Notes: a model not told the origin generated them from the letters alone. A DNA stretch of 49,845 nt from Candidatus Omnitrophota bacterium (GCA_041649115.1 JBAZNT010000011.1:1-49845); one strand, 5' to 3'. Counted from the first letter of the stretch, positions 8,098 through 14,939 are shown. Program-made: numbers and translations.

Positions 8098-8526
8098 ATG
8101 AAGATAAAGATTTCCGCAAGGATGGCGTTGAGGATAACGATAACGGCGATATTGGCGATTTTGTTTATCTTCGCCAATTTCGTTACCGTCAGGCGCATGG
8201 GGTATTACGCTATTGAGGCAAATTTTTACGACGAGCTCTCCGTAGCGTATAATACCGGGGGCACGGATGGCCTTAAGAAGGAATTGGACAGGATTGCGCT
8301 AAGCGCCAAGATGAATCGCAAGCGGGCAATGGCAGAGGAGTTTAAGGTACGGCTCAAGGACCTTGGCGACCCCCGGGGGCTTATCCAGCGCTCTTTATCC
8401 GAGGATATGAAGAAGATAGCGTTGTTCAGGAACCTGCGCAGCGCGGCAATCGGGATACTGGCAATAATACTGATATTCAGGATTTCTGCCAGACTCAGGA
8501 TTTTAAGGAGCAGAAAAAAGGGCTAA
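8098..8526 (+). CDS. Hypothetical two-TM membrane protein
   Basis: Hydrophobic segments at both ends flank a charged soluble region; the ORF fills the gap between neighbouring genes. Confidence 0.65.
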   Translation: MKIKISARMALRITITAILAILFIFANFVTVRRMGYYAIEANFYDELSVAYNTGGTDGLKKELDRIALSAKMNRKRAMAEEFKVRLKDLGDPRGLIQRSLSEDMKKIALFRNLRSAAIGILAIILIFRISARLRILRSRKKG

Positions 8527-8544: not shown

Positions 8545-8572
8545 TTGACAAAATATGCAAAATGCATATAAT
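8545..8572 (+). promoter_or_regulatory. Sigma70-type promoter of the efflux operon
   Basis: TTGACA-16 nt-TATAAT. Confidence 0.8.
8553..8569. promoter_or_regulatory. Palindromic operator 1 (TATGC-N5-GCATA)
   Basis: ATATGCA-AAA-TGCATAT lies inside the promoter spacer and overlaps the -10. Confidence 0.7.
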
Positions 8573-8616
8573 TGTATTATAAAGTTATATAATTATATTT
8601 ATAATTAATACGATTA

Positions 8617-8631
8617 TATGCTTAATGCATA
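8617..8631. promoter_or_regulatory. Palindromic operator 2 (TATGC-N5-GCATA)
   Basis: TATGC-TTAAT-GCATA lies just before the GAGAGG SD and repeats the core of operator 1. Confidence 0.65.
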
Positions 8632-8643
8632 CGAGAGGACGGG

Positions 8644-10194
8644 ATGGCGATAGGGCTTTTAAGCAAGAACAAGCTCAAACTCCTTAAGTTTTTTTATGAC
8701 CATCCGGATAGGGAGTATTACATCCAGGAACTCGGCCGGCTCCTGGGGAAGAAGCCCGGCGTATTCCAGCGGGCATTGAATGACCTCCATGACAGGCGCC
8801 TGCTCCTGAGCGAATATAAGGCCAATGCCAGGTTTTTTAAAGTCAACACCCGCCACCCCATCTACAACGAATTAAAAAGTATCATATCCAAGTCTCTGAA
8901 GTCCTGCGTTGTCCTGTGCTTATTATGGCTGCCGCTTTTGCACGCCGAAGACCAGCCGTTTAGCCTTACCGCTGCCGTAAAAATCGCCTTCCAGAACAAT
9001 AAGGATATCCAGATGCAGGAGAGGGAGATTGAGGCGGCAAAGGCCGGTATCCTTGAGGCTACCAGCCGGTTTCTGCCCAAGATAAACCTTGAGGGCGGCT
9101 ATACCCGTAACGACAAGGTCTGGGCAGAGAACATATTTACCGGCTATAAGAACGACAACCAGCTGGCCCTGACCTTTACGGAGAACCTCTACAGCGGCGG
9201 CGCAAACATCTCAAGCTACAAGCAGGCGATGCTTACCCTGAGGGCGCAGGAGGAGACCTTGCGCGCCAAGAAGCTGGACGTGGAATTCGACGCCAAGCGG
9301 CTCTACTACGGCCTGCTCCTTGCCTACGAGACAGAGCGTATTGCCCGCGAGACACTGGAGCAGTCCAAGGCGCATTATTCGGATGTCAAGCACCGCTTCA
9401 GCCAGGGGACTTCATCGCGTTTTGACGTCTTGCAATCCGGGGTGCAGGTTTCTCTGCTCGTGCCTAACCTGGTAAAGGCGAGCAATGAGATAAGAATAAT
9501 CAAGGCGGACCTGAATAAGCTCCTGGGCCGCAATGTCGATACAGCGATTGAGACGCGCGAACTGCTTGGCTACAGCGCCATTGAGGTCAAGGAGCAGGAA
9601 TTTCTTAAGACCGCTTATCTTAATAAGCCGGAGATGATGCTCAAAACCCTGGGGGTAGATATCAATAAATGGTCCATCCAGATGGCCAAGTCCGGATACA
9701 GGCCGCAGCTGGACCTGAACGCAGCTTATAGCTACCGCTCCAATAACATCGGCAACCTTATTAATAAGGAACACGGTAACTGGAATGCCGGATTCAGCTT
9801 TAGCGTTCCGATATTTGAAGGGTTTTCCACCAAGGCCAAGGTAGAGGAGGCCAGGGCGCGCTATGCCGAGGCGCTGATAAGCAAGGATAACCTCTCCGAC
9901 CAGATTGCCGTGGATATACGCCGGGCCTGCCTGAATCTTAACGAAGCAGAGTCGATTATAAATTCCCAGAAGGACCACGTAGGAGAGGCGAGGGAGGCGT
10001 TGAAGATTGCCGAGGTCAGTTATGACAGCGGCGTTGCCAAGAACCTCGACGTCCTGGATGCGCAGGTCTCGCTCGGCCAGATTCAGCAGAACCTTGCTTC
10101 GGCAATTTACGACTACCTGATGGCCGAGGCCTATCTGGCAAGGAGTATGGGGGAGAGCGTCATTAAGGAGGAAAAAAATGAAAAAGAAGATTAG
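8644..10194 (+). CDS. Winged-helix DNA-binding domain fused to a signal peptide and a TolC-family outer-membrane efflux protein
   Basis: aa 1-84 are wHTH-like (HPDREYYIQELGRLL...FQRALNDL...NARFFKVN..HPIYNEL). aa 86-101 are signal-like (KSCVVLCLLWLPLLHA). The remainder shows two TolC repeats ending in YDYLMAEAYL. Single uninterrupted frame. Confidence 0.85.
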   Translation: MAIGLLSKNKLKLLKFFYDHPDREYYIQELGRLLGKKPGVFQRALNDLHDRRLLLSEYKANARFFKVNTRHPIYNELKSIISKSLKSCVVLCLLWLPLLHAEDQPFSLTAAVKIAFQNNKDIQMQEREIEAAKAGILEATSRFLPKINLEGGYTRNDKVWAENIFTGYKNDNQLALTFTENLYSGGANISSYKQAMLTLRAQEETLRAKKLDVEFDAKRLYYGLLLAYETERIARETLEQSKAHYSDVKHRFSQGTSSRFDVLQSGVQVSLLVPNLVKASNEIRIIKADLNKLLGRNVDTAIETRELLGYSAIEVKEQEFLKTAYLNKPEMMLKTLGVDINKWSIQMAKSGYRPQLDLNAAYSYRSNNIGNLINKEHGNWNAGFSFSVPIFEGFSTKAKVEEARARYAEALISKDNLSDQIAVDIRRACLNLNEAESIINSQKDHVGEAREALKIAEVSYDSGVAKNLDVLDAQVSLGQIQQNLASAIYDYLMAEAYLARSMGESVIKEEKNEKED

Positions 10195-11011
10195 GCTTAT
10201 TATTATAATTGCTGCGGTTTTTATCGCGGGTTTCTCCGCAGCATACATCATAGAAAAAGATAAATCCAGGCATGAAAAGTTCATCAAGGTCTCCGGTAAT
10301 ATCGAAGGCGACGACGTGCGCATCTCCTTCCGCGTCAACGGCCAGATATTGGAGCTCCTTAGCGATGAAGGAAAGGTAATCCGCAAGGGGGATATCGTGG
10401 CGCGCCTGAATACTGACGAGCTCAGCAAGGTCAAGGCGAATGCCGAGGCAGCCCTGAAAGCCGCAGAATACCAGTATGCCTTATCAAAGATAGATTACGA
10501 GAGGGCGGTGAGCCTGCTTAAGGTCGGCGCAATATCGGTGCAGGACCGCGATAATGCCAAGACTAAATTTGACGCTGACCTTGCCAATGTGGAGCAGTTA
10601 AAGGCTCAGCTGGAACTGGCGGATACCCGGCTGGGGTTTGCGGACCTGGCTTCCCCTTTAGACGGTTTCGTGCTGGTGAAGGGTTCCCTGGCAGGAGAGG
10701 TAGTCCAGCCGGGGACACCCGTATTTACTGCCGTAGACCTGCATAATGTCTGGGTTACCGCCTACATCAACGAGACTGACCTGGGGAGGGTGAAGCTTAA
10801 CCAGGAGGCCTACGTTACCACCGATACCTACGCCGGCAAGAAATACAAAGGAAGGGTTTCCTTTATCTCCAGCGAGGCTGAATTTACCCCCAAGTTTATC
10901 CAGACGCAGGAAGAGAGGGTTAAGCTCGTTTATCGCATAAAAGTGAGAGCGGATAACGAAAGCCTGGACCTGAAACCCGGAATGCCGGCAGACGCCTACA
11001 TCATCGAATAA
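10178..11011 (+). CDS. HlyD-family periplasmic adaptor (YbhG-like)
   Basis: N-terminal anchor, SGNIEG, lipoyl-like halves, and SEAEFTPK.IQT.EER.KLVYRIK. Confidence 0.9.
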   Translation: MKKKIRLIIIIAAVFIAGFSAAYIIEKDKSRHEKFIKVSGNIEGDDVRISFRVNGQILELLSDEGKVIRKGDIVARLNTDELSKVKANAEAALKAAEYQYALSKIDYERAVSLLKVGAISVQDRDNAKTKFDADLANVEQLKAQLELADTRLGFADLASPLDGFVLVKGSLAGEVVQPGTPVFTAVDLHNVWVTAYINETDLGRVKLNQEAYVTTDTYAGKKYKGRVSFISSEAEFTPKFIQTQEERVKLVYRIKVRADNESLDLKPGMPADAYIIE

Positions 11012-11014
11012 CCA

Positions 11015-11755
11015 ATGATTGCCATCAAGACCGAGGACCTTACCCGTAAATTCGGCAGTCTCACTGCGCTTGATAGCCTGAATCTCCAGGTTCAGGAGGG
11101 GGAGATCTTCGGACTGGTCGGCCCGGACGGCGCAGGAAAGACCACTACCATGCGACTTCTTACCGGGATACTCAATCCCAGCGCAGGGGAGGCCTGGGTT
11201 TACAATAAACATACCGTAAGAGAGGCGGAGCCGTTGAAGGAGCACATCGCCTATATGTCCCAGCGTTTCGGGCTTTATGAGGAGTTAAGCGTCCTGGAGA
11301 ATATCAACTTTTACGCTGATGTCTACGGGGTTGCCAAAGAGAAGCGCAACGAGACGATAGAGCGGCTGCTTGGTTTTTCCGGCCTCTTGCCTTTTAAGGA
11401 GCGTTTCGCCGGCAAGCTCTCCGGCGGGATGAAGCAGAAATTAGGCCTGGCCTGCGCACTTATCCATACCCCGCGCGTCCTTTTCCTGGATGAGCCTACC
11501 AACGGAGTAGACCCGGTTTCAAGAAGGGACTTCTGGAACATCCTCTATGACCTGCTTAAGGAGAAGGTCACCATTTTCTGTTCTACCTCTTATCTCGACG
11601 AAGCCGAGCGCTGCCGCAGGGTGGGCCTGATACACAAAGGAAAACTGCTGCGTTGCGATTTTCCGGACAGCATCAAAAAGGAATGTAATGTCAAGACCCT
11701 GGAGCAGGCATTTATCCAGATAATCAAAGATTATGAAAGAGAGCACTCCCAATAA
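11015..11755 (+). CDS. ABC transporter ATP-binding protein (efflux, first NBD)
   Basis: GPDGAGKTT, LSGGMKQ and LFLDEPT; SY replaces the H-loop His. Confidence 0.92.
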   Translation: MIAIKTEDLTRKFGSLTALDSLNLQVQEGEIFGLVGPDGAGKTTTMRLLTGILNPSAGEAWVYNKHTVREAEPLKEHIAYMSQRFGLYEELSVLENINFYADVYGVAKEKRNETIERLLGFSGLLPFKERFAGKLSGGMKQKLGLACALIHTPRVLFLDEPTNGVDPVSRRDFWNILYDLLKEKVTIFCSTSYLDEAERCRRVGLIHKGKLLRCDFPDSIKKECNVKTLEQAFIQIIKDYEREHSQ

Positions 11756-12698
11756 TATCGCGGTAAGCGTCCGGGAGCTGGAGAAGAGATTCGGGAATTT
11801 TACCGCCGTCAACCGCATCAGCTTTGAAGTGCGCCAGGGCGAGATTTTCGGGTTCCTCGGCCCCAACGGAGCGGGAAAATCCACTACCATCAGGATGCTC
11901 TGCGGGATTATACCTCCTACCTCCGGCAGCGGGCAGGTGGGGGGTTACGACATTATCAGAGAGCAGCATAACATCAAAGAGCACATCGGGTACATGTCCC
12001 AGAAGTTCTCGCTTTATGACGATTTGACGGTTGAGGAGAATATAAATTTTTACAGCGGCATATACAAGATCCCGGCCAAAGATAGAAAGGAACGTTTTGA
12101 GGCGGCCCTGCGCACCGCAGGGCTGGAGGGTATGGGCGGCAGGCTTACCTCTACGCTTTCCGGAGGGTGGAAGCAGCGCCTGGCGCTGGGATGTGCGCTG
12201 CTGCATAGGCCCAGGATAATATTTCTCGATGAGCCGACCTCGGGCGTTGACCCCATTACCCGCGCCAATTTCTGGGCGGTTATCAAACAGATGGCTGCCG
12301 AGGGCGTCACCGTATTCGTGACCACCCATTATATGGACGAGGCGGAAAATACCGACCGCATGGTTTTGATCTATCGCGGCACTATCATTGCCCATGGCAG
12401 CCCCGAGGAAATGAAACTCAATGTCATGAAACACGAGGTGCTGGAGATCGCGATATCCAATTCCCAGGACTGGCTGGAGAGGGTGGGCGGCATAGAGGGG
12501 GTTAAAGAGGCGGCGCTTTTCGGGGCGACCATCCATGCGGTAGTTTACGATAGCTCCAAGGCAATACCGGCGATAAAGGCATCCCTGGAGAAGGAAGATG
12601 CAGGGGATTTCAGCATCAACAAGATACTTCCTTCGCTGGAAGACGTATTCGTCTCTTCGATAGAGAGCTATGACCATGCCGAACCTAAAAAGAATTAA
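11733..12698 (+). CDS. ABC transporter ATP-binding protein (efflux, second NBD, C-terminal extension)
   Basis: GPNGAGKST, LSGGWKQ, FLDEPTSG, TTHY and C-terminal PSLEDVF. Confidence 0.92.
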   Translation: MKESTPNNIAVSVRELEKRFGNFTAVNRISFEVRQGEIFGFLGPNGAGKSTTIRMLCGIIPPTSGSGQVGGYDIIREQHNIKEHIGYMSQKFSLYDDLTVEENINFYSGIYKIPAKDRKERFEAALRTAGLEGMGGRLTSTLSGGWKQRLALGCALLHRPRIIFLDEPTSGVDPITRANFWAVIKQMAAEGVTVFVTTHYMDEAENTDRMVLIYRGTIIAHGSPEEMKLNVMKHEVLEIAISNSQDWLERVGGIEGVKEAALFGATIHAVVYDSSKAIPAIKASLEKEDAGDFSINKILPSLEDVFVSSIESYDHAEPKKN

Positions 12699-13809
12699 GG
12701 CAGTGGCCTGGAAGGAGTTTATCCAGATAAGGCGCGACCCGCGTTCGCTCTCGCTGGCCTTGGCAATTCCGATTTTCATGCTTTTGATTTTCGGTTACGG
12801 GCTTTCCCTGGACATCGATAAGGTGCGCACCATAGTCTGGAACCAGGACTCCTCGCAGTTCTCGCAGGACTTCCTCCTCAATTTCAAAAATTCCAAGTAT
12901 TTTAAAATAGTCGAATACACGGATAATTACCGGGATATCGAACGTAAGATTGACAAGGGCGACGTGCTGATGGCGCTCATTATCCCCAAGGACTTTTCCC
13001 GTTACATCAGGTCCGGAAAGACCGCTCCCCTGCAGTTGATAGTGGACGGCAGCGACGCAAACACCGCTACCATTGCCATGGGGTACGTGCGTTCGGTAGT
13101 TTCGCAGTACAACGTGAACCTGATGGCCAATACCTTTGCCAGGCACGGCCTTAACCCTCCCAAAACTATAGATGCGCGGCCGAGGGTCTGGTTTAATATG
13201 GGCCTGACCAGCACCTGGTTTATCACCCCCGGCGTTATCGCGATGATTATCATGATTATCTCGGCGCTCCTGACGTCCCTTACCGTTGCGCGGGAATGGG
13301 AGAGGGGAACGATGGAGCAGCTTATCTCTACCCCGGTAAAGGCGCCCGAGCTGATTATCGGAAAATTCATCCCTTATTTTACGATTGCCTTTTTTGACCT
13401 TACGGTCGGGGTGCTGATGGCGAGGCTTTTATTCGGAGTCCCTTTCAGGGGAAATTACCTGGTGCTCCTGGTTTTAAGCATTCTGTTTTTGACCGGCGCA
13501 TTATCGCAGGGGATATTGATTTCCATAGTCGCCAGGACCCAGCTTATGGCAAGCCAGCTGGCGGCATTGACCACGCTCCTGCCTACGGTACTCCTGTCGG
13601 GTTTTATCTATCCGATTTTTAACATGCCTAAGTTTATACAGGCAGTTACCTATCTTATTCCGGCGCGCTATTACATCGTGGTATTGAGGGAGTTATTTCT
13701 GAAAGGGGCGGGTATCTCCGACATGACGGATGAGGCGCTCTTTTTGTTTTTATTCGCTTCTATAATGCTGACACTGGCGATGAGAAGGTTCAAGAAGAAG
13801 GTGGCCTAA
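12676..13809 (+). CDS. ABC-2 type permease (YbhS-like)
   Basis: KEFIQIRRD, DGSDANTA, AREWERGTMEQL and LSGFIYPI. ATG 12676 is better spaced from the SD than 12670. Confidence 0.9.
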   Translation: MPNLKRIKAVAWKEFIQIRRDPRSLSLALAIPIFMLLIFGYGLSLDIDKVRTIVWNQDSSQFSQDFLLNFKNSKYFKIVEYTDNYRDIERKIDKGDVLMALIIPKDFSRYIRSGKTAPLQLIVDGSDANTATIAMGYVRSVVSQYNVNLMANTFARHGLNPPKTIDARPRVWFNMGLTSTWFITPGVIAMIIMIISALLTSLTVAREWERGTMEQLISTPVKAPELIIGKFIPYFTIAFFDLTVGVLMARLLFGVPFRGNYLVLLVLSILFLTGALSQGILISIVARTQLMASQLAALTTLLPTVLLSGFIYPIFNMPKFIQAVTYLIPARYYIVVLRELFLKGAGISDMTDEALFLFLFASIMLTLAMRRFKKKVA

Positions 13810-13811
13810 AG

Positions 13812-14939
13812 ATGTTTGAGAGGGTATTGGCAATACTCAGAAAGGAATTCAAGCAGATCTTCCGCGACCCCAGGATGAAAACCATCATCTTCATCACCCC
13901 GCTGATGCAGATACTTCTTTTCGGCTACGCCGCCAACAAAGACATCAACTATATCCCCACCGCCATTTATGACCGGGATAATACCAAGGAGAGCCGCCAA
14001 CTGTTGCGCGATTTTACCTACTCCAAGTATTTCATACCGAAGGATTATATTTATACCGACCAGCAACAGAATGATGTCCTTGACAAGGGGCGGGACAGTG
14101 TGGTCATCCGCATTGACCGGGGTTTTGGCCGCGACCTGAGGGCAGGTAAAGACGCAAACATCCAATTGGCATACGACGGCACAGATTCCAATACCGCTAT
14201 GGTGATTATGGGGTATGCCAATACCATTGTTGGAAATTACCAGTACGGGCTTTTGCGTAAGGAAATCGAAAAGAGAGGATGGTCGGATACCATGCCGAAT
14301 GTGGAGCTGAGAGACCGCGCCTGGTTTAACGGCAACCTCATCTCAAGGAATTATTACCTGCCGGGGGTAATCGCTACCATCATAACCATGATGTCGTTGT
14401 TATTGAGTTCCATGGCGATAGTGAAGGAGAAAGAGATCGGCACGATGGAGCAGCTGACCGTCAGCCCCTTAAGGCCGATTGAGCTTATTGTGGGCAAGCT
14501 GCTTCCCTTTGCATTAATCTCGCTTATACAGGTCGTTCTTATTACCGCGCTGGGGGTGTTGTGGTTCAGGATACCGTTAAGGGGAAACCTTATTTTGCTG
14601 TTATTCTCCACCTGCATATATCTTTTTACTACCCTGGGGATAGGGCTTTTCATTTCTACCATATCCGCAACGCAGCAGGAGGCGATGATGTCGGTCTTCC
14701 TTTTCTATATGCCGGCAATCCTGCTTTCGGGATTTGCCTACCCTATCGCCAACATGCCTGCGCCCATTCAGTATTTTACCTTTATCAATCCTCTGCGCTA
14801 TTTCCTGGTGGTTGTCAGGAGCATATTCCTTAAGGGCGTGGGGATTGACGTCCTCTGGAGCCAGCTTCTGCCGCTGTTAATCATCGGTTTATTCGTCGTT
14901 ATCCTGAGCACCCTGAAATTCCGCAAGAGCTTAGCGTAG
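13812..14939 (+). CDS. ABC-2 type permease (YbhR-like)
   Basis: KEFKQIFRD, DGTDSNTA, KEKEIGTMEQL and LSGFAYPIANMP. Confidence 0.9.
   Translation: MFERVLAILRKEFKQIFRDPRMKTIIFITPLMQILLFGYAANKDINYIPTAIYDRDNTKESRQLLRDFTYSKYFIPKDYIYTDQQQNDVLDKGRDSVVIRIDRGFGRDLRAGKDANIQLAYDGTDSNTAMVIMGYANTIVGNYQYGLLRKEIEKRGWSDTMPNVELRDRAWFNGNLISRNYYLPGVIATIITMMSLLLSSMAIVKEKEIGTMEQLTVSPLRPIELIVGKLLPFALISLIQVVLITALGVLWFRIPLRGNLILLLFSTCIYLFTTLGIGLFISTISATQQEAMMSVFLFYMPAILLSGFAYPIANMPAPIQYFTFINPLRYFLVVVRSIFLKGVGIDVLWSQLLPLLIIGLFVVILSTLKFRKSLA

Follow-up and report, generated by a model that had tools for sequence, protein, structure and literature searches.

There is, in a 49,845-nucleotide (nt) stretch of DNA from a Candidatus Omnitrophota bacterium (GCA_041649115.1 JBAZNT010000011.1:1-49845; the whole of this analysed stretch is called the window below), a gene whose product joins a winged helix-turn-helix (wHTH) domain to a TolC-type outer-membrane channel, and it is the promoter region of this gene that is considered here. 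The other genes of the operon (10178-14939), for an HlyD-type adaptor, two ABC ATPases and two ABC-2 permeases, are closely packed or overlapping and lie on one strand. In the DNA upstream, a promoter scan gave TTGACA-16-TATAAT, a sigma-70-type arrangement matching the consensus at 12 of 12 positions, with a predicted transcription start at ~8579. From within this promoter to just ahead of the ribosome binding site runs a series of palindromic units, candidate operators for the fused domain, and what these units are, and what reads them, is our subject.

The upstream regions of relatives define the repeat: a 15-mer, TAT(G)(C)-N5-(G)(C)ATA, and after it a spacer of 6 bp. That register was then applied to the window. 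It picks out an array of four 15-bp TAT-N9-ATA units with 6-bp AT-rich spacers and a strict 21-bp period (unit starts at 8554, 8575, 8596 and 8617), the array consensus being TATGC-AAAAt-GCATA and 21 bp being two helical turns. Unit 1 fills the spacer between the -35 and -10 hexamers and overlaps the first 2 nt of the -10; units 2-4 are downstream of the predicted transcription start, in the predicted leader. Strong units stand at the two ends, unit 1 being the top match in the genome to a position weight matrix (PWM) of the motif, and the two inner units are degenerate. On shuffling of the inter-site DNA, both inner registers rarely come to carry TAT and ATA (P = 0.0005), and at the place homologous to unit 2 relatives have good sites. 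Half-site centres alternate at 10- and 11-bp spacing, so that all half-sites come to lie on one face of the helix.

A preliminary description of this DNA had pointed to two copies of a palindrome, one (8553-8569) in the promoter spacer and over the -10 and the other (8617-8631) just 5' of the Shine-Dalgarno sequence, with 63 bp between their centres. These coordinates are borne out and both copies are real, but the array to which they belong has four units, of which they are the outer pair, and the 63 bp between the centres of units 1 and 4 is 3 x 21. The AT-only palindrome that had been noted midway, ATATAATTATAT, is indeed at 8587-8598, but it spans the junction of the two inner units, from the tail of unit 2 across the spacer TAATTA into the head of unit 3, and so arises from the repeat and is no element of its own.

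Table. Promoter elements, candidate operator units and genes of the wHTH-TolC operon, with positions counted from the first letter of the window
Feature	Position	Strand	Remarks
-35 hexamer TTGACA	8545-8550	+	promoter scan
Candidate operator unit 1, TATGCAAAATGCATA	8554-8568		strong; core of perfect 17-bp palindrome 8553-8569 (ATATGCA-AAA-TGCATAT); PWM 27.8 bits
-10 hexamer TATAAT	8567-8572	+	first 2 nt overlap end of unit 1
Candidate operator unit 2, TATTATAAAGTTATA	8575-8589		degenerate; TAT/ATA ends retained, inner GC/GC gone; 4 mismatches; PWM 10.4 bits
Candidate operator unit 3, TATTTATAATTAATA	8596-8610		degenerate; TAT/ATA ends retained, GC core gone; 4 mismatches; PWM 15.8 bits
Candidate operator unit 4, TATGCTTAATGCATA	8617-8631		strong; ends 1 nt 5' of GAGAGGA; PWM 27.0 bits
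Shine-Dalgarno-like GAGAGGA	8633-8639	+	4 nt 5' of ATG at 8644
Fusion open reading frame, 516 amino acids (aa)	8644-10194	+
wHTH domain, codons 1-85	8644-8898	+	AF2 model, Foldseek, PDC-M05A match
Recognition helix, residues 38-50 (KKPGVFQRALNDL region); wing, residues 54-67
Sec-type signal-peptide-like segment, codons 82-101	8887-8946	+	KSLK, then SCVVLCLLWLPLLHA, then EDQ
TolC/OEP outer-membrane channel part	8947-10194	+	Pfam OEP PF02321, E = 5.5e-65
HlyD-type adaptor	10178-11011	+	HlyD_D23 and HlyD_3 matches
Two ABC ATPases	11015-11755, 11733-12698	+	Walker A and signature motifs read in translations
Two ABC-2 permeases	12670-13809, 13812-14939	+	read in translations

Could such palindromes arise by chance in AT-rich DNA? 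In the window exact TATGC-N5-GCATA occurs twice (0.07 expected), and in the 1.32-Mb genome, in 22 contigs, it occurs three times, two of them at this promoter. When only the 117-bp AT-rich intergenic region is shuffled, with dinucleotides preserved, the same half-site twice in a 5-N5-5 palindrome has P = 0.0076, a weaker result that leaves the palindromes, on the letters of this one region, suggestive and not decisive. Local shuffles gave only P ~0.008-0.02, but the genome-wide and cross-species data exclude chance. Genome-wide, PWM scoring puts a single orphan of 27.4 bits, on contig C3, beside the two outer units (27.8 and 27.0 bits), the next best match having 16.6 bits. As regards a wider regulon in this genome, the scan thus yielded one further strong site only, and it has no adjacent gene. 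This orphan is a perfect palindrome, TATTCAATTTGAATA (C3:79190-79204, outside the window), followed by TATAAT; it lies just 3' of a 407-aa open reading frame (ORF) and has ~450 bp of ORF-free DNA after it, in which locality tblastn detected no wHTH, MNT or HEPN remnant. It may be what remains of the promoter of a module since lost, or else the repressor may have a second target here.

Relatives provide the more telling comparison. A search with residues 1-100 of the fusion retrieved 162 proteins at E <= 1e-3; all 120 of the N-terminal-region homologues listed carry the TolC/OEP Pfam domain, and those named by source are all from Omnitrophota. When an alignment of the domain was run against species-representative genomes, 80 loci emerged; classed by ORF length, they comprise ~50 TolC fusions, 26 proteins of ~190-210 aa and 3 stand-alone genes of 86-89 aa. 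Whether the motif stands upstream of homologous fusions was the check that the preliminary description had itself named, and it does: among the 49 fusion loci with enough upstream DNA at least one site (<=2 mismatches, within 130 bp upstream) is present in 44 and at least two in 42, and the five exceptions, all in a clade of 555-556-aa fusions, have a variant with 14-bp N4 units and a 20-bp period. Few features of the fusions are as constant as this motif. All 47 pairs of adjacent strong sites have a spacing of 21 bp, and the arrays ahead of fusions have three units in 28 loci, four in 9, five in 2 and two in 3. In 68 of 79 loci a TTGACA-like hexamer (exactly TTGACA in 52 of these 68) stands 9-10 nt before the first unit, which overlaps a -10 reading TATAAT in 40 loci, TACAAT in 16 and TATGAT in 7. 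At the other end, the median distance from last unit to start codon is 13.5 nt for TolC-fusion loci and 14 nt for loci of the MNT type described below. In ~410 kb of fetched loci there are 150 sites with <=1 mismatch, and 129 of them fall no more than 200 bp upstream of the wHTH start codon. In a near relative (L002) unit 1 is kept with one change and unit 4 is identical, while the 12 nt after unit 4 have diverged.

Some of these relatives have features of their own. The clade of 555-556-aa fusions (L020, L024, L026, L027, L033 and L044) has TATGC-N4-GTATA type units and a weaker -35; L020 sits on the complete chromosome of Velamenicoccus archaeovorus LiM, a named strain open to experimental study. 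Six relatives carry a second TATGC-type set 650-1200 bp upstream of the fusion gene, as a 21-bp pair in four (L045:2192-2227, L064:2042-2077, L077:2322-2357 and L078:1774-1809) and as a single strong unit in two (L038:2284 and L073:1802). It is at the 3' end of a conserved divergent gene for a secreted protein of ~152 aa without a family, a gene that the window does not have, and the sites at both ends could bracket that gene. In L018 (990-3251) the fusion ORF has 753 aa; either a lost stop or a sequencing error appears to have carried TolC on into the gene that follows. Upstream of the promoter in the window itself is an ORF (8098-8526, 142 aa with hydrophobic ends) that has no Pfam or NCBIfam match and is not kept beside the fusion in other genomes, where the upstream flanks differ.

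The domain and its motif also occur together away from TolC. In the proteins of 190-210 aa the same wHTH is joined to a Pol-beta-type nucleotidyltransferase (Polbeta and NTP_transf_2 in the 192-aa relatives), and these wHTH-MNT genes are followed, usually with a 29-nt overlap, by one for a HEPN protein; the former match PADLOC PDC-M05A (E = 1.3e-51) and the partner matches M05B. The assemblies that contain them are of Omnitrophota and of others labelled Deltaproteobacteria, Nitrospiraceae, Aminicenantes, Firestonebacteria and Stahlbacteria, among further names. A TATGC-type unit is present in 24 of the 24 wHTH-MNT loci scored, and at least two are in 19, with the layout relative to TTGACA, the -10 and the start codon unchanged; arrays here have 1-2 units, five loci having a single one. 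In four of these loci (L029, L042, L047 and L072, in the set L029-L080) there is only a shorter downstream ORF, for which a non-ATG start or a truncated partner may be responsible. All three stand-alone wHTH genes have at least one site. As judged over the three architectures, the motif tracks the wHTH domain and not TolC.

Two loci show the parts of the fusion apart. In L022 (1735-2001, 2170-3387) and L035 (2992-3261, 3380-4615) a wHTH gene of 88-89 aa with the same operators stands directly ahead of a tolC gene that is separate and has a start and signal peptide of its own, plausibly an intermediate state between free repressor and fusion. In L009 (2995-3255) a stop interrupts the signal-peptide region and TolC resumes in a different frame, owing either to a frameshift or to an error of assembly.

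Does the palindrome change when the presumed reading head changes? Twenty distant Omnitrophota paralogues were fetched, of which 17, with 32-44% identity to the query, were placeable, and all 17 keep TTGACA and then palindromes up to the start codon. The letters of those palindromes differ. TATGC-type sites go with the ..PGVF.. recognition helix: all 3 paralogues that have it carry them, and none of the 14 with another helix does (Fisher P = 0.0015), the identity to the query being alike in both groups (39-44% and 32-41%, respectively). Paralogues with the helix xPGN(V/I)(R/Q)RE have half-sites GAGTA / TACTC (4 loci), those with SVGT(I/L)HREL have TTCTC / GAGAA (3 loci), those with IPVSxxRKEL have GTAAT or GTAAC / ATTAC (2 loci) and those with DPGN(L/V)S(K/R)EL have TACATC / GATGTA (4-5 loci). 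Such variation of palindrome with recognition helix is to be expected if the domain reads the palindromes and is hard to explain otherwise.

The domain itself is named by PADLOC and by fold searching alone. Residues 5-84 match positions 10-89 of the 201 of PDLC04368 (PADLOC PDC-M05A) with E = 2.1e-17. An AF2 model of residues 1-87, built from 34 aligned homologues, is confident (pLDDT 88.6) and shows the order H-b-H-H-b-b-H, with a two-stranded wing; its Foldseek neighbours (3r0a, AntR, ZitR, MepR, MexR, HlyU and SmtB; E = 1e-4 to 1e-3, TM 0.65-0.75) include several regulators of efflux pumps, and the domain models as a winged helix like those of the ArsR/SmtB and MarR repressors. It is without membership of Pfam HTH_20, NCBIfam gave only PhoB at E = 0.072, and the sole match in a PDB sequence-profile search was 3r0a (E = 0.016). 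Conservation is greater in the wHTH than in the TolC portion: homologues average 68.7% identity with the window protein over the former and 60.2% over the latter, the wHTH value being the higher in 107 of 116, and recognition-helix and wing residues are nearly invariant in the family. In the window protein OEP/TolC is in place of the nucleotidyltransferase domain and the next gene is for HlyD, not HEPN. The wHTH is the sole member of its family in this genome, in which no MNT or HEPN gene was found (the best tblastn match to M05B/HEPN-like sequences has E = 9.6), and the three other TolC paralogues that the genome encodes have neither the wHTH domain nor the motif.

That the palindromes are operators for the fused wHTH, its N-terminus being a functional autoregulator, had been proposed in the preliminary description, and the proposal is now supported by conservation of the motif, by its presence with other architectures and by the helix-linked change of palindrome, all of them comparisons of sequence. 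It is highly probable, in our estimation, that 8545-8643 comprises a consensus promoter and four operators, that the operators are cognate to the fused wHTH, and that side-by-side binding to them effects negative autoregulation. We take as shown the sites themselves, with their register, conservation and exclusive link to this wHTH family, the shift of palindrome with recognition helix, and the wHTH fold. In the scheme, for which we infer binding, dimer stoichiometry, repression in preference to activation, cooperativity and the domain's release from TolC, wHTH dimers would occupy adjacent units along a single face of the helix. The dimer at unit 1, between -35 and -10, would exclude RNA polymerase: a promoter with perfect hexamers and a 16-nt spacer should need no activator, and occupancy of unit 1 would therefore be expected to block polymerase. 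Units 2-4, in the transcribed leader, might stabilise the complex cooperatively or act as a roadblock to elongation, and the outcome would be a TolC-HlyD-ABC-2 efflux operon that represses itself. As to origin, promoter, operators and wHTH would have been inherited as one cassette, whose two-unit form drives the wHTH-nucleotidyltransferase/HEPN (PDC-M05) modules. In Omnitrophota the cassette would have been placed before tolC as a separate small gene and later joined, in frame, with the signal peptide of TolC; the array would have grown to 3-5 units after the move to tolC.

Several features weigh against this scheme or complicate it. From the 10/11-bp alternation of half-site centres it follows that a spacer-centred reading, GCATA-N6-TATGC, is palindromic likewise. 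The N5-centred register is provisionally preferred as the dimer unit, since arrays open with TATGC and close with GCATA and since lone units exist (at five MNT loci and as the contig C3 orphan). The centre of the unit is oriented and asymmetric: over all loci the PWM has 71-76% A at the three central positions of the N5 (8559-8563 and 8622-8626 in the window) on the coding strand, by which the palindromes carry an orientation, and the cause may be an intrinsic bend, a wing reading the minor groove or mere leader composition. The domain falls under every Pfam and NCBIfam HTH threshold (MarR_2 gives 13.3 bits, the cut-off being 27), and it is translated within a protein whose C-terminal part must exit the cytoplasm. 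Finally both inner units are weak in this genome, with 4 mismatches each, and for that reason are possibly unoccupied.

It is this last weakness that leaves a small share of the probability with a two-site bridging model, in which only the outer sites (8554-8568 and 8617-8631) are occupied and their dimers touch across a 63-bp in-phase loop, the inner DNA being a linker. Looping permitted by in-phase spacing had been envisaged in the preliminary description, and the phase is right, 63 bp being six helical turns; what does not stand is a loop between isolated sites, as the gap holds two units. The inner units do lack the GC core and score 10.4 and 15.8 bits where the outer ones score ~27, and the linker is very AT-rich (GC 0.22-0.25). 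Their TAT and ATA ends are nonetheless in the exact 21-bp register at the P value given above, relatives hold good sites at the inner positions with strong neighbours 21 bp apart without exception, and a protein-free 63-bp DNA loop is energetically costly. Because the gap is filled by in-register units that are at full strength in relatives, contiguous binding is the better account, and the occurrence of contiguous arrays of 2, 3, 4 or 5 units is better explained by side-by-side binding than by one set loop length. Bridging is, all told, unlikely.

The fusion of the domain to an exported protein, and the decay of the inner units in this genome, might instead suggest a relic: a cassette inherited from a PDC-M05-type module whose wHTH is now a mere extension of the TolC precursor with no role at DNA. 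This we regard as very improbable, for the wHTH exceeds TolC in conservation in nearly all of the homologues compared, with helix and wing almost unchanging, the operators have been kept over ~50 species-level fusion loci while the flanks diverged, and growth of the arrays from 2 to 3-5 units after the move to tolC, if that is what occurred, is unlike decay. Hardly any likelihood attaches either to a different, trans-encoded regulator that binds the sites, or to a wHTH that activates instead of represses. Some regulators that bind within promoter spacers, those of the MerR type, are activators; here, though, the hexamers are perfect and the spacer has 16 nt, and a protein in the spacer and on the -10 would block polymerase. 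For another regulator it is awkward that the motif tracks the wHTH over three architectures, several phyla and unrelated neighbours and changes with the recognition helix, there being no wHTH paralogue in the genome. Then there is the RNA. The predicted transcript includes units 2-4, the last of them directly against the Shine-Dalgarno sequence, so leader hairpins formed by the palindromes could in principle control translation or stability. Yet unit 1, with the same sequence, is upstream of the predicted transcription start, the folding energy of the leader (-10.3 kcal/mol) is no better than that of shuffled sequence (z = -0.25), no Rfam match to it was found at E <= 1, and the half-site letters are conserved as sequence in the manner of a protein-binding site. 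An RNA-level element was rejected on the fold and Rfam results, and its probability is close to nil.

Returning to autorepression by the fused domain, how is a DNA-binding domain to be reconciled with an exported channel? The window protein has a single hydrophobic span after the wHTH, SCVVLCLLWLPLLHA, with an uncharged core of ~15 aa. In the family the signal-like core is a median of 16 uncharged aa, coming after basic residues and followed mostly by a small residue and then acidic ones. Cleavage after A101 is predicted, and, to go by the known architecture of TolC, a functional channel would presumably have to lose everything before ~residue 102. The stub left behind, wHTH plus signal peptide, would then stay at the inner membrane or be set free from it. 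An internal start giving a separate TolC precursor was considered and rejected: the residue before the core is M, L, I or V in some homologues and A, T, S or W in others (S here), so that such a start is not conserved.

A more elaborate possibility, put forward tentatively and with the balance somewhat against it, is that the array is the read-out of an export-coupled feedback in which the supply of repressor is tied one-to-one to export of the channel. The only source of repressor would be the N-terminal extension that precedes the TolC signal peptide. Each Sec insertion, with the cut after A101, would leave one wHTH-signal-peptide stub, held in the membrane or released by signal-peptide proteolysis, and the stub would bind the four phased units beside its own source gene. 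Growth from 2 to 3-5 units might on this reading compensate for loss of the MNT dimerisation domain or for membrane tethering.

How does this compare with established systems? Local repressors of the MarR/ArsR type (MexR of mexAB-oprM, MepR of mepA, AntR, SmtB and HlyU) have palindromic operators, often two, that overlap the promoter of the operon they control. They share the winged-helix fold with the domain here, and its target is likewise an efflux system with a TolC-type channel, but the domain has only 85 aa, without a ligand-binding or an extended dimerisation region, it is the N-terminus of a channel precursor and not a separate protein, and its operators form a 21-bp periodic array, of 3-5 units in the family. 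PDC-M05 has a wHTH homologous to that in the window (52-60% identity), and its promoter agrees in the TTGACA hexamer, in TATGC-N5-GCATA units repeated every 21 bp and in how far these stand from the start codon. The gene in the window, however, has no nucleotidyltransferase, the genome has no HEPN partner, the cassette drives an efflux operon, and the arrays before TolC fusions have 3-5 units where those of PDC-M05 have 1-2. PDC-M05 is a toxin-antitoxin-like pair of nucleotidyltransferase and HEPN whose antiviral role is unconfirmed (PMC12988326), and MNT-HEPN modules had seemed to be without a DNA-binding component (Makarova et al. 2009, PMC2701414). A literature search found no description of the wHTH-TolC fusion, of its operators or of operators for PDC-M05. 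By function, to judge from the comparisons above, this is a local winged-helix autorepressor of an efflux operon, as are MexR and MepR; by descent, its domain and operators would belong to the wHTH-MNT (PDC-M05A) family.

Other likenesses are more partial. If the precursor or stub stays in the inner membrane, its topology (a cytoplasmic wHTH, one hydrophobic segment and a periplasmic part) would be that of the tethered regulators ToxR, CadC and TcpP. Those have OmpR/PhoB-type winged helices and periplasmic sensor domains and mostly activate, whereas the fold here is ArsR/MarR-like, the periplasmic part is a channel to be cut off, and the signal peptide looks cleavable. MetJ on its met boxes, and type II antitoxins on their arrays, bind short palindromic repeats of fixed helical phase whose number varies between promoters, and the arrays of the present family are similarly phased units, varying in number, over a promoter. 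However, MetJ and many antitoxins are ribbon-helix-helix proteins, unlike the winged helix here, and no co-repressor or toxin partner is evident. The loop pairs of the lac, gal and ara type have two separated in-phase operators, as do the outer units here at 63 bp, but the intervening DNA in the present case is not site-free, holding the further units at 8575 and 8596.

A palindromic operator for a local repressor is ordinary in itself. What the operators do is to make of an odd gene model, a transcription-factor domain placed before the export signal of a channel, a testable regulatory system with a defined DNA target, and the support for the domain still binding DNA comes from the DNA motifs and not from the protein. 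A complete cassette of promoter, operators and repressor, belonging to PDC-M05, a very common family of toxin-antitoxin or candidate defence modules, would appear to have been recruited to control an efflux operon, and this recruitment is seen in Omnitrophota, a phylum with almost no cultured members. With at least five matched classes of recognition helix and half-site, the family could yield a recognition code for winged helices, or orthogonal pairs of repressor and operator.

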